Below, in pieces: positions 2,449 through 63,453 of a stretch of DNA of 64,000 nucleotides. How positions within the stretch are numbered: the stretch's first letter is position 1; each line of letters starts with the position of its first letter. Origin of the DNA: Nannocystis pusilla. GTDB lineage: Bacteria > Myxococcota_A > Polyangia > Nannocystales > Nannocystaceae. The notes beneath the pieces are model-generated. The model made no database searches, was not told the DNA's origin, and saw nothing but the letters and a program-made list of their open reading frames with translations. The DNA lies in assembly GCF_026626665.1 (NCBI RefSeq), contig NZ_JAPNKE010000002.1, forward strand, positions 1,421,204 to 1,485,203. Reading direction: 5' to 3'. The position numbers and the translations under genes were made by a program.

Positions 2449-2466
2449 CATGTCCATGCGGACATG
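2449..2466. repeat. Inverted repeat CATGTCC-ATGC-GGACATG, member of the GGACATGTCC-core palindromic repeat family
   Basis: Read directly in the intergenic gap 2298-2498. Confidence 0.6.
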
Positions 2467-2498
2467 TTCAAGCAGACCTGGCCGCTCGAGCATGCCTC

Positions 2499-2938
2499 TC
2501 AGGGCAGGTTGTCGGGGTGCAGGGCGACGACGGCGGCGTCGATGTCGAGCTCGAGGTCGACCGGCTGGCCGTGGTCGAAGGTCTGGAGGTAGCCGTCCCA
2601 GTCGCAGCGGGCGGAGGCCGCCAGGCGCACGCCGCCGGGCGCGGCGGCGATGCGGAAGCCGAGCGCGCACACGTCCTGGCCGCCAGGGTAGAGGGTGACG
2701 GCGCGGCCGAGCAGGGCGCCGGCGACCTCGTCGAGCGAGCGCAGGTCGACCGACACCTCGGCGCCGATCAGCGCCTCGGGCGAGCGCGGCCCCGGATGAC
2801 GGTGCCGGCCAGCCACAGCGTGGCGCCGGCGTGGTCCAGCGCGAGGTTCCAGTCGGCCTCGGGGGCGAGGCAGTGGTACAGCTCGAGCGAGGCGCTGCGG
2901 AAGGTCCAGGTGGTGTCGCCGATCCGGATCCGGCTCAT
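2499..2938 (-). CDS. Small hypothetical protein with interrupted reading frame (apparent 1-nt indel near 2775-2800)
   Basis: GGAGG sits 4 nt upstream of ATG 2938 (MSRIRIGDTTWTF...). The N-terminal ~50 aa are in the frame of ORF 2768-2953 and the C-terminal ~95 aa in the frame of ORF 2499-2966. Length 440 nt is not a multiple of 3. Confidence 0.3.
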
Positions 2939-3010
2939 GCGCCTCCATACCACGGGAGGCGGTCAAGTGCGGAACCTGGCCGAGGGGCCAGGTTCACGGC
3001 GTCGTGCGGC

Positions 3011-60193: not shown

Positions 60194-60404
60194 GCCCGAG
60201 GTTTTCCTGCTCGAAGGGTCGCGGAGTCAAGCCCGGCGGGCCGCGTCGGCGAAGGTCCCGACGCGGCCCCGAGTTCGCCGCAGGCCCGGACGGCGAATGC
60301 CGTTTCGCGGCCCGGCGCGGCGGCGCTGCGGCCGCTCCCCTGCAAACAGGGGCGCCGCGCGCCTCCAGGCCCACAACGCCGCCGGCCCTTGATACCATGC
60401 AGGC

Positions 60405-63376
60405 GTGGGCGAGGCGGCGAGGACGGGCGAGGGGCCTTTCGCGGAGAGCCCGCCGAGCGCGCGCAGCACCTCCGGGGCCCTGTCCGACCTCGATCAGTCG
60501 CACCTGACCGGGGTCGAGACGCTGGCCGAGTCGCCGTCGATCGACGAGGTGCAGGCGCTCAAGTTCGAGCGCGGGGCGGCGATCGAGCGCTACACGGTGC
60601 TCGACCGCATCGGCGCGGGGGCGATGGGCGTGGTCTACACCGCCTACGACCCGCGGCTCGACCGCCGGGTGGCGCTGAAGATCATGCACGCCCGCCCCGG
60701 CCACCGCGCCGACGAGATCGTCGGCCGGCTGCTGCGCGAGGCCCAGGCGCTGGCCAGGCTGCAGCACCCGAACGTGGTCGCCATCTACGACGCCAACCGC
60801 ATCGGCGAGCTGGTGTACCTGACGATGGAGCTGGTCGACGGGCACAACCTGTCGCGCTGGCTCAAGGACGGCAAGCGGACCAGCCAGGAGATCCTCGACA
60901 CCTTCGTCGCCGCCGGCCGCGGGCTGGCGGCCGCGCACAAGGCCGGGATCGTCCACCGCGACTTCAAGCCCGACAACGTGCTGGTCGGCCGCGACGGGCG
61001 GGTGCGCGTGGTCGACTTCGGCATCGCCCGCGGCGCGGAGGGGCCCGAGTTCACGGCTGTCCCTCGGGACATGTCCGAAAACATCTCGACGCCGCCGAGC
61101 GCGTCGATGTCGGCGAGCCTGTCGCCGTTCGCCACCACCGACAGGGGCAACTCGGCGCCGCTGGCCGACACCGACCCGGCGGCGGCCAAGCTGCAGGCGG
61201 CCGCCCTGGCCTCGCAGACGCCGCAGACGGGGCTCGACTCGGCGATCGCGGGGCTGTCGTCGATGCGGTTGACGCGGACCGGCGCGCTGGTCGGGACGCC
61301 GGCCTACATGGCGCCCGAGCAGCACATGGGGCAGCGCGTCGACGCGCGCGCCGATCAGTTCGCGTTCGCGGTGGCGCTGTTCGAGGCGCTGTTCAAGGCC
61401 CACCCGTTCCCGGCCAAGACTACGTGCAGCTGACGACGAGCGTGCTCGGCGGCAAGATCGACGCCACGCCGGTGCGCACGTCGGTGCCGCTGCACGTGCG
61501 GCGGGCGATCCTCCGCGCGCTGGCGGTCGAGCCGAGCCAGCGGTTCGAGTCGATGGACGCGATGCTGGCCGCGCTGGCGCCGACGGACCGGCGGCGGCGC
61601 ACGATCTTCGGCGCGCTGGCGGTGGCCGGCGTGGCGGCGACGGTGGCCGGCGGGATCGTGTGGGCGCAGGTCAAGCCGCCGGGCTGCGAGGGCGCGGACC
61701 GTCACCTCGTCGGGGTGTGGGACGAGGCGACGAAGGAGCGGGCGCGGCAGGCGTTCCTCGAGACCGGGCAGCCGTACGCGGCGCGCGCGGCCGAGACCGC
61801 GACGGCGGCCCTCGACGAGTACGCAGCCACGTGGGTGGCGATGCGCCGCGAGGTCTGCGAGGCGTCGCTGGTCCACCACGAACAGTCGCCGCTGCTGCTC
61901 GACCGCCGCATGGCCTGCCTCGATCGCCACCTCGATCAGCTGCAGGCGACCGCGGCGCTGTTCTCCGAGGCCGACCGCGAGGTGGTGCAGCGGGCCGCGG
62001 TCGCGGTCGAGGGGCTGCCCGACCTGAAGGCCTGCGCCGACGCCGAGCAATTGATGCAAGGGAACGGGCGCTCGCTGGCCAGCCGCGAGGAGGTGGCGCG
62101 GCTGGAGGGCATCCTGGCCCACGCGGTGGCCAAGCGCCACGCGGCCAAGTACGCGGCGGCGCAGGGGCTGGCCGAGCGCGCGCTGCAGGAGGGGCGGGCG
62201 AGCGGGGCGCCGGCGATCGAGGCGCGGGCGCTCATCACCCTCGGGCAGATCGCGGCCGACCAGGGCCGCTTCGAGCAGGCGGTCGAGCTGCACACGCGGG
62301 CCATCGCGGCGGCGGAGGCCGGCGGGGTCGACCCGCTGCGCGGGCAGGCGATGGCCGAGCTCGGGCTGGTGCTCGGCGGGCTGCAGCAGCGCCACGCCGA
62401 GGGCGAGCGGCTGCTGCAGCTGGCGGCGGCCACCGACCTGCGCGTAGGGGCAGGTCCCATCGAACAGGCGCGAAGGGACATCTCGCTCGGCATCGTGCGG
62501 ACGGCCCGCGGCGAGCACGAGGGCGCCCGCCAGACGCTGCTGGCCGCGGTCGAGGTGCTGCGCGCGGCGCCAGCGTCGTCGCGGCTGCTGCTGATCGCGG
62601 CCTTCAACGCGCTCGGCTCGCTCGAGGACAAGCGCGGGCGCGCCGAGGCGGCGCGCCGGTACTTCGGCGACGCGCTGGCGCTGGCCGAGGACCGCCTCGG
62701 GCCCGACCACCCGGACGTCGCGTCGGTGCTCAACAACATCGGCGTGCTGGAGTGGCGAGCCGGCCGCGCCGAGCAGGCGATCGCGGCGCTCGAGCGGGCG
62801 CTCGACATCCGGGTGCGCACGCTCGGGCCGGACCACCCGGAGAGCGCGACCTCGCGGATGAACCTCGGCAACGCGCTGCTCGACGTGGAGCAGTACGAGC
62901 GGGCGAGCGGGTTCTACGAGCAGGCGGTCGCGGCGCTGCGGCGCTTGCCCGGGTCCGACCGCGACCTGATCGACACGCTCTACAACCTGGCGATCTGCCA
63001 CCACATGCGCGAGGACTTCGCCGCGGCGGCGCCGATCTTCGAGGAGGCGCTGCGCCGCGGCCAGGCGATCTTCGGGCCGGACGACGCCGAGCTCGCGTAC
63101 CCGTTGCACGGCCTCGGCGTGGCGCTGGTCGAGCTCGGGCGCCTCGACGAGGCGCGGCCGCTGCTCGAGCGGGCGCTGGCGATCCGCACCCGCAAGGACG
63201 TGCGACCCGTCGACCTGGGCGAGCTGCGGTTCGCGCTCGCGCGCGCGGTGGTGGCCCGCGACCGTCCGCGGGCGCTGAAGCTGGCGTCGGAGGCGCGGAC
63301 CGACTACGCCGGCGATCACGCCGACGCGGAGGTCTCGCGGGTCGACGCCTGGCTGCTGGCCCACGTCGAGCGCTGA
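60405..63376 (+). CDS. Ser/Thr protein kinase with a long C-terminal TPR region; apparent 1-nt deletion in a CCC run near 61412-61420
   Basis: The kinase domain ([33 protein letters not shown]) carries a ~60-aa activation-loop insert. It continues in the frame of ORF 60035-63376 through a TM-like segment and multiple TPRs. Confidence 0.75.
61060..61085. repeat. GGGACATGTCCGAAAAC element in frame inside the kinase activation-loop insert (encodes PRDMSEN)
   Basis: Read directly. Confidence 0.5.
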
Positions 63377-63412
63377 GCCGACGCGGCCGCGCCCGGGTCC
63401 TCTCGATGATTG

Positions 63413-63453
63413 TTTGGACATGCTCATGCAGACATGTCCGAAGAGTCTCCTTA
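63413..63453. repeat. TTGGACATGCTCATGCAGACATGTCCGAAGAGTC, two GGACATG-family units
   Basis: Intergenic, downstream of the kinase gene. Confidence 0.6.

Follow-up and report, generated by a model that had tools for sequence, protein, structure and literature searches.

Palindromic units in an exact 14-bp register form a Nannocystis-specific repeat family at gene 3' ends

Which kind of element is repeated between the genes of the myxobacterium Nannocystis pusilla? A 64,000-nt stretch of its genome (~71% GC, hereafter the window) was described in a sequence-only reading as carrying a dispersed family of palindromes like repetitive extragenic palindromes (REPs) or miniature inverted-repeat transposable elements (MITEs), for which roles as terminator hairpins, protein-binding sites or small mobile elements were proposed. 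All 14 loci cited hold the sequences described, and the repeat family is real, conserved and specific to Nannocystis; it is defined by its sequence and register, not by RNA structure. It is apparently undescribed so far: literature searches returned no description of it for Nannocystis or other myxobacteria. Because open reading frames (ORFs) occur in every frame at this GC content, the gene map of the window was built from third-codon-position GC and verified by Pfam (roughly 40 window proteins were scanned) and by the called genes of syntenic loci; intergenic DNA makes up 13% of the window. The MtaB protein encoded in the window is 100% identical to that of N. pusilla. The arrangement of the units was studied in 137 kb of Nannocystis DNA from isolates (the window and six loci, four species) and, as an independent replication, in 19 metagenome loci (164 kb, 69-77% GC). 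The latter were chosen for three perfect cores and are consequently skewed to young arrays.

The core of the family is the decamer GGACATGTCC, a 10-bp palindrome. The window contains seven exact copies of it where dinucleotide shuffles predict 0.05, and 21 copies where they predict 1.9 if one mismatch is allowed. In an unbiased k-mer screen, GGACATGTCC and GGACATG rank among the most enriched words. The repeated unit can be written as the palindrome GGRCATGYCC followed by a variable, A/T-rich 4-bp spacer. In the unit profile (nn-GGA-CATGTC-C-nn), CATGTC hardly varies, conservation is moderate for GGA and the final C, and no information resides in the 4-nt spacer. The spacers are strand-symmetric and contain ~48% A+T, compared with 28% in the genome; stable tetraloops of the GNRA or UNCG types were considered for them and rejected, as their sequences are diverse and no class dominates. 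The variant GGACAGG/CCTGTCC, also listed by the sequence-only reading, is a genuine minority form of the unit centre (C[AC]TG), but the block at 44713-44981 where it is concentrated is a local duplication that lies largely off the lattice described below.

The most distinctive property of the family is the distance between its units. In the isolate DNA, same-strand C[AC]TGTC motifs are separated by 14 bp in 35 pairs, by 28 bp in 10 and by 42 bp in 10, other distances being close to zero, and no pair at 14 bp was found in ~530 kb of unrelated high-GC genomes. The metagenome loci replicate this lattice with 108, 68 and 40 pairs at 14, 28 and 42 bp and none at 13 or 15 bp. Tandem Repeats Finder (TRF) reports 14-bp periods at three of the loci cited earlier, and what had been taken there for shared flank modules are not conserved flanks but neighbouring units of this lattice, which that reading had missed. 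A lattice detector recovered 52 multi-unit arrays in 158 kb of Nannocystis DNA (3.3 per 10 kb) and none in 528 kb of controls; by extrapolation, there are roughly 4,000 arrays per genome. Array size ranges from 1 to 8 units, with a maximum of 7 in isolate genomes and 8 in metagenomes. A conserved site, an exact spacing and uninformative linkers are therefore found together, as in arrays of fixed register.

The taxonomic range of the family is narrow. The core occurs 1.1-1.6 times per 10 kb in Nannocystis and 0.04-0.05 times elsewhere (~30-fold less) in a comparison set of up to ~0.86 Mb from other genomes, of which ~0.49 Mb exceeds 68% GC. The full lattice is present in the syntenic relatives whose MtaB protein is at least 84% identical, whereas the relative at 78% has two isolated decamers and no array. 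Neither the lattice nor an alternative periodic motif was found in the relatives with MtaB identities of 62% and 57%, nor at locus L129, where the chain-length factor (CLF) is 65% identical. The lattice is present in N. pusilla, N. punicea, N. radixulma, N. bainbridge and N. exedens, and relatives that lack it include the organisms of loci L125, L126 and L129. A metagenome scan with a three-unit pattern, for which fewer than one chance match was estimated, returned, among the matches listed, 19 loci at 69-77% GC that are true family members; the matches of low and middle GC were excluded as unrelated perfect 7/14-bp satellites. A link to phages was also rejected, since a scan of viral contigs gave only single pairs at chance level, in low-GC contigs.

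Within the genome, the arrays are mostly found after genes. Among the gaps of the isolate genomes, arrays occupy 12 of 18 between convergent genes, 13 of 51 between tandem genes and one of 14 between divergent genes, the array at 2446-2511 being additional to this count owing to its overlap with a doubtful ORF call; in the metagenome set the figures are 16/19, 7/46 and 1/18. The bias to convergent gene ends noticed earlier is thus reproduced in two data sets. In tandem gaps of the isolate genomes, the array starts 0-45 nt past the upstream stop codon in 10 of 11 cases, and in the metagenome set most arrays lie at most 21 nt from the stop codon. The family therefore combines the extragenic location after gene ends and between convergent genes that is usual for REPs with the short distance to the upstream stop codon that is usual for terminators. 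The first decamer lies exactly 7 nt past the stop codon in ~10 of 29 isolate arrays (about a third), a phase that puts TGA where the TGT of a preceding unit would fall. This phase is weakly replicated in the metagenome set (6 of 38), and the idea of a stop codon in a fixed lattice phase was rejected as a rule and kept as a hint. The claim that nearly all copies are intergenic holds for most of them (25 of the 45 GGACATG heptamers of the window are non-coding), but three of those cited are in-frame parts of genes, namely mtaB (43724-43760), the chain-length-factor gene (56931-57010) and a kinase gene (61060-61085).

Comparison between genomes indicates that the units are preserved while their surroundings change. 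Three hairpin modules recur at orthologous sites of three genomes. When N. pusilla is compared with N. punicea, hairpin modules match at 100% identity over 55 nt and 34 nt, whereas the ~190 nt between them are ~50% identical and contain indels. The module at 38414-38459 is identical in N. punicea and has a single G-T change in the third genome, within flanks that are ~50% identical. The hairpin downstream of the metallo-beta-lactamase gene occurs in three genomes, among which N. punicea has two copies at a distance of 66 bp, and is retained with the lactamase gene in the genome that is missing the neighbouring gene. Array length varies by whole units: N. punicea lacks exactly one 14-nt unit of the array at 38650-38715 (a 14-column gap by the stop codon of the acyl-CoA dehydrogenase gene), the array downstream of Maf has 2, 2, 1 and 1 units in four genomes, and the array downstream of the kinase gene has 2, 3 and 2 units across genomes, with different spacers. 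In isolate genomes, units of the same array are no more alike at variable positions (0.42-0.46) than units of different arrays (0.42), which implies that most of these arrays are old and that their spacers are saturated while core and register remain intact. For the same reason, recent slippage was rejected as the source of the isolate arrays; young homogeneous arrays do exist in the metagenomes, where ~30% of unit pairs within arrays are nearly identical, spacers included, against 5% between arrays. Taken together, these comparisons suggest that arrays are born by tandem duplication, after which the spacers would diverge while core and spacing are maintained.

Several interpretations of this pattern have to be weighed. 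The maintenance of core and register in the face of diverging spacers implies recognition by a sequence-specific factor; the invariant core, the exact register, the uninformative and strand-symmetric spacers, the exclusion from promoter gaps and the conservation within diverged gaps point to a reader that acts either on DNA or equally on both convergent transcripts. The interpretation that we rank first, although tentatively, is a DNA-level element of gene 3' ends. The strand-symmetric units would be recognised by a sequence-specific factor, most simply a dimeric protein binding each palindrome, which would read neighbouring palindromes in the 14-bp register. Local tandem duplication or insertion, in steps of 14 bp, would give rise to new arrays, and their spacers would then be free to diverge while core and register are kept. 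The arrays could act as bidirectional 3'-end elements, that is, as a barrier or terminator/insulator for converging transcription, and hairpin or cruciform formation may help at some loci. Among the roles proposed by the sequence-only reading, that of a protein-binding site would best fit the strict register. A more general version, which we regard as rather doubtful, is a genome-wide protein-DNA system of unknown type, in which a factor in 14-bp register (three units correspond to about four helical turns) would sit on thousands of gene 3' ends as a bidirectional terminator/insulator or as a marker of domains or topology; we know of no general system of that kind in bacteria.

Some observations weigh against a DNA-level element. 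No binding protein has been identified, and no obvious partner is encoded among the ~40 window proteins scanned with Pfam. A step of 14 bp places successive sites ~120 degrees apart on the helix, which is unusual for cooperative binding. The pair of arrays found in an operon junction and the arrays read in frame within genes imply that the arrays are not strong unconditional barriers. In addition, three loci are long perfect palindromes with locus-specific arms, which a protein binding double-stranded DNA does not need and which point to single-strand hairpins, and the 4 nt on each side of the decamer are complementary beyond what the consensus predicts (P = 0.02 for non-redundant loci, 0.0005 for all loci). 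It is mainly these palindromes, with the complementary spacer shells, that suggest a role of single-strand hairpins at some loci. Finally, everything said here about function is deduced from sequence: the family, its lattice, taxonomic range, position, conservation and turnover and the lack of strand-specific RNA signatures are observed, while the binding factor and the barrier role are inferred. The features to which these arguments refer are collected in Table 1.

Table 1 Units, arrays and related features of the repeat family (window coordinates unless a locus is given)
Feature	Position	Strand	Context or basis
Exact GGACATGTCC copies	17362, 38428, 38664, 43741, 45810, 57698, 61067		Window
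7-nt stop phase, examples	23511-23520, 23585-23594, 38715-38724; L104 2799-2924		Window and locus L104
5-unit lattice array	2446-2511		Convergent gap; right end overlaps a weak/doubtful ORF call; position weight matrix/lattice scan
~6-unit array	17362-17440		Between convergent menaquinone-biosynthesis and ABC-transporter genes; fold z about -4
5-unit array	23520-23585		Takes up a 78-bp convergent gap except for 6 nt beside each stop codon
42-bp tandem repeat, 5.5 copies	25501-25733		TRF, lattice scan
Three-unit module	38414-38459	+	Starts 24 nt past the stop of a periplasmic-binding-protein gene
5-unit array	38650-38715		Ends 6 nt from the acyl-CoA dehydrogenase stop codon
Two units in frame in MtaB	43727-43750	+	Peptide ETCSEGHVP
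GGACAGG-type block	44779-44974		TRF and species comparison; mostly off lattice
Hairpin, decamer at apex, one conserved G.G mismatch	45800-45829		15 nt past the metallo-beta-lactamase stop
Two lattice units inside coding sequence	49078-49101	+	Conserved in three genomes
2-3-unit array	53011-53046		Convergent gap after Maf
5-6 units in frame in the chain-length-factor gene	56923-57002	-	Lattice scan
Lineage-specific insertion at the KS-stop/CLF-start overlap	57579-57750	-	Comparison with relatives
Single decamer in frame, kinase activation-loop insert (PRDMSEN)	61067-61076	+
2-unit array	63416-63439	+	39 nt past the kinase-TPR stop codon

Individual arrays depart from the simple pattern in different ways. 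The array at 17362 contains a 1-nt register slip following its second unit. The 42-bp repeat (25504-25731) is a higher-order repeat of 3 x 14 bp, in register, made up of one good, one weak and one decayed unit; it sits in a 666-bp gap (25191-25856) flanked by two hypothetical genes and shortly downstream of the gene for a GAF/sigma-54 activator (27610-29076). Extended perfect palindromes, as described earlier, are present: one of 18 bp at 23523-23540, one of 28 bp at 38419-38446, in which the decamer is central and which is followed by the tail ATGCTGCTTTCGG, and one of 32 bp at 38653-38684. The window also contains four further strong intergenic hairpins (stems of 10-13 bp) that lack the decamer, at 2972-2995, 12959-12988, 30448-30476 and 60238-60269. 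Since the last of these lies in a divergent gap and is devoid of the core, the core-bearing hairpins are a subset of the hairpins of the window.

The second-ranked explanation, possible but on balance unlikely, places the element at the RNA level: hairpins at mRNA ends would act as terminators that need no U-tract or would shield the 3' end against exonucleases, and the palindromic core would give both converging transcripts a single RNA motif that an RNA-binding protein or an RNase may read. The position of the arrays immediately downstream of stop codons would be expected in that case, and most arrays, as well as all long hairpins, fold far better than shuffles (z -3 to -9). The element at 38419-38459, the only one with a partly U-rich conserved tail, retains its sense-strand pairing despite the G-T change of the third genome, the hairpins at 38419 and 45805 differ by a compensated A-T/G-C pair, and palindromy reaches into the spacers. 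Nevertheless, several arrays are direct repeats of half-sites that cannot form such structures and fold no better than shuffles (z 0 to -2), and a hairpin requires neither a strict 14-nt register nor an invariant CATG. Deviations from the consensus are not compensated across spacers (P = 0.11-0.26), which led us to reject hairpins between adjacent units, nor between neighbouring units (P = 0.88). The three-unit modules were likewise rejected as long hairpins in general, the long perfect palindromes excepted, because units i-1 and i+1 do not covary, and no covariation supporting an RNA fold extends beyond the 4-nt shell beside the decamer. Strand-specific signatures are lacking too: no strand is preferred with respect to the upstream gene (29 vs 23), and G.U is not favoured over A.C on the sense strand (46 vs 32; 29 vs 30). 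The terminator role suggested earlier fares no better in its canonical form, as none of the six terminator-like sites with a hairpin and T-tract in the 36-55 kb region coincides with an array. Rfam gave no match at the gathering score over the whole window, nor at E <= 1 over 36-64 kb. The arrays in the operon junction and inside genes are also difficult to reconcile with mRNA-end hairpins.

The third explanation, which we consider improbable, is that the family has no cellular function and is a selfish or mutational by-product, spread by slippage, template switching and insertion, kept uniform by biased repair or conversion and surviving only where it is harmless, at gene ends and in convergent gaps. 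One argument for it comes from the junction of the KS and CLF genes. Three other genomes (N. radixulma, a second strain and a distant relative) show an ATGA overlap of the KS stop codon with the CLF start codon. In the window, these two codons are separated by 126 nt (57602-57727) that are new and include two modules of three units each (57626-57649 and 57684-57721). None of the three genomes carries this insertion; a strain with a 97% identical CLF does, enlarged by 30 nt. The insertion lies between the two copies of a 23-bp direct duplication of the junction (57579-57601 and 57728-57750), as a result of which both the stop codon and the start codon are preserved. Presence/absence polymorphism between species, a point raised by the sequence-only reading, is also seen in the GGACAGG block after mtaB (44713-44981), which is absent from N. 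punicea and a third genome. There, a 31-nt ancestral sequence is duplicated at both ends and a 64-bp unit occurs about twice between them, so that the block and the KS/CLF insertion have a common layout, in which ancestral sequence is duplicated with expansion in between. This block borders a gene for a 261-aa protein without Pfam match (44982-45767, - strand), which lies between the mtaB and lactamase genes, has motif-bearing sequence on both sides, and is found in the window and N. punicea and absent from three syntenic loci (L003, L124 and L126). Frequent polymorphism in unit number, the existence of homogeneous young arrays, and two arrays that fill convergent gaps to within 6 nt of each stop codon would also suit a by-product, and REPs and MITEs show a comparable enrichment in safe gaps.

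The copies inside genes, where matches are ~4-fold above the control rate, would similarly suit a by-product tolerated in variable protein loops. The units of mtaB lie in an insertion of 4-5 residues confined to the Nannocystis clade. The array of the chain-length-factor gene falls within a loop of variable length, where its units are read in rotating frames (DM / TC / EHG / SDM; 14 aa = 42 nt); it was rejected as a recent insertion, since the peptide DMPxxTCRL is conserved down to ~61-65% identity, which makes the array old. The decamer of the kinase is conserved in N. radixulma and disrupted in another strain (PRDTSEN). In N. radixulma and another strain, the kinase-TPR gene itself (60405-63376) is one uninterrupted ORF of ~990 aa. 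Its counterpart in the window has a frameshift near 61420-61433, away from the motif copy, where the kinase part ends and beyond which the TPR part is read in a different frame; this would make it either a pseudogene or the site of a sequencing error. What a by-product does not readily account for is the behaviour of the old arrays, which keep core and register despite saturated spacers, the identity of orthologous modules within otherwise diverged gaps and the near absence of indels other than multiples of 14. A neutral process would erode core and register unless a conversion mechanism specific to the core exists.

A true REP/REPIN or MITE, copied by a RAYT-type (IS200/IS605-like) or other transposase, is largely refuted and seems very improbable. 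The description of a dispersed, palindrome-based family stands, and the palindromic, extragenic, convergent-biased and multicopy character of the units, together with one insertion flanked by a direct duplication, recalls such elements. Membership does not stand: only the 10-bp core is common to the loci, and the hairpin arms differ at each of them. Two hairpins of the window do have a 16-mer in common (GGACATGTCCTGGCGG, core and arm), which is found, among the matches listed, in two 8-kb blocks of the complete 13-Mb N. punicea chromosome, one of them syntenic. The extended arm was rejected as a multicopy family, the matches listed being mostly single chance hits in Streptomyces and other taxa, and as the arms outside the core are not multicopy, the family is neither REP nor MITE. 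The position profile is uninformative outside the decamer, and so shows no GTAG-like conserved head. The sole datable insertion has no clear terminal inverted repeats, and its target-site duplication is of 23 bp and not of a short fixed length. Neither the 126-nt insert nor the 44713-44981 block has a second copy in the ~230 kb of Nannocystis DNA searched (~2% of a genome), and no transposase, HUH nuclease, methyltransferase or RAYT was found among the ~40 window proteins by Pfam. Of the mobile-element idea, only local duplication or insertion is left. An iterated motif linked to DNA uptake or methylation, accumulating through biased uptake or repair, is the least probable explanation of all: a short lineage-specific motif, over-represented ~30-fold, conserved at orthologous sites and in modest (4-fold) excess within genes could be expected of it, and palindromes of the RCATGY/ACATGT type are recognised by restriction-modification enzymes, but fixed-register arrays and an extreme 3'-intergenic bias are foreign to such motifs.

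Other repeats and conserved blocks were encountered in the window and at related loci. An ADYC-domain protein gene (3011-3916) contains a coding 15/30/45-bp tandem repeat at 3787-3901 that is unrelated to the motif family. The second strain (L003) has an extra trypsin-like gene between the periplasmic-binding-protein and acyl-CoA dehydrogenase genes, and the gap beside it (L003 3560-3830) contains two direct copies of a ~100-nt sequence (tcgctgcgtcccacgccgcc...gtcgtgaggc). In more distant relatives, a different intergenic repeat, gtaac(t/c)ggcccgcg, occurs three times at L124 5062-5130, and a MITE-like 778-bp gap bounded by ~100-nt inverted repeats is found at L129 1730-2507. A relatively A/T-rich block at ~63505-63585, upstream of a gene starting at 63617, is conserved in three Nannocystis genomes whose surrounding sequences have diverged (gtaacgtgtt.gtatgtac...gactgatcca.gagggggt.ggg.tacgctcat); it has no match in Rfam and might serve as a promoter or leader or encode a small RNA.

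Dispersed intergenic palindromes, of which REPs, HIP1 and uptake sequences are examples, belong to the commonest non-coding features in bacterial genomes, and most of them have no agreed function. The signature of the Nannocystis family is unusually clean and testable, with an invariant core, an exact 14-bp register, a location at gene ends and conservation across species. An estimated several thousand gene ends are marked in the 12-Mb genome of a natural-product-rich myxobacterium, and the family therefore matters for annotating operons and terminators and for designing expression constructs. It could, in addition, help to uncover a novel DNA- or RNA-binding factor.

How does the family compare with known systems? 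The REP, BIME and REPIN elements of Enterobacteria and Pseudomonas, mobilised by RAYT, are similar in being short GC-rich extragenic palindromes, clustered at gene ends and in convergent gaps, with hundreds or thousands of copies and conservation inside a lineage. REPs are units of 20-40 nt whose whole sequence is conserved, including a GTAG-type head, whereas the Nannocystis units have only a 10-bp core, locus-specific arms and an exact 14-bp lattice. Rickettsia palindromic elements (RPEs) resemble the copies found in permissive loops of MtaB, the chain-length factor and the kinase in that they are inserted in frame. However, RPEs are elements of 100-150 bp conserved over their full length, and the genic copies of Nannocystis consist of 1-6 units of 14 bp that are old and conserved across the genus or beyond. 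The uptake sequences of Neisseria (DUS) and Pasteurellaceae (USS) are also short, over-represented, lineage-specific motifs that frequently form inverted pairs directly behind genes and at times lie in frame within coding sequence. They differ in being non-palindromic, mostly single and far commoner inside genes, with no fixed-register arrays, while the Nannocystis motif is palindromic, arrayed and intergenic.

MetJ metboxes, plasmid iterons and ParR/parC repeats provide the closest parallel to the register, with short sites, often palindromic, placed at an exact centre-to-centre distance in variable copy number and separated by uninformative linkers. Those arrays are few per genome and located at promoters, origins and centromeres, whereas the arrays of Nannocystis are at gene 3' ends and number several thousand per genome by extrapolation. 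HIP1 (GCGATCGC / GGCGATCGCC) of cyanobacteria is, like the Nannocystis core, a short perfect palindrome over-represented in one lineage and conserved between genomes at orthologous sites. It is an 8-10-bp palindrome of unknown function, 15-300-fold over-represented (PMC5861425, PMC4390886), and is conserved both within and between ORFs (PMC5861425). HIP1 is linked to orphan methyltransferases and no fixed-register tandem arrays have been described for it; the Nannocystis motif is not spread within and between ORFs free of a tandem register, but concentrated in 14-bp arrays at intergenic 3' ends, with an excess in coding sequences of only ~4-fold. The family thus has features in common with REP/BIME elements, HIP1, uptake sequences and fixed-register arrays, and departs from each of them in a defining feature.

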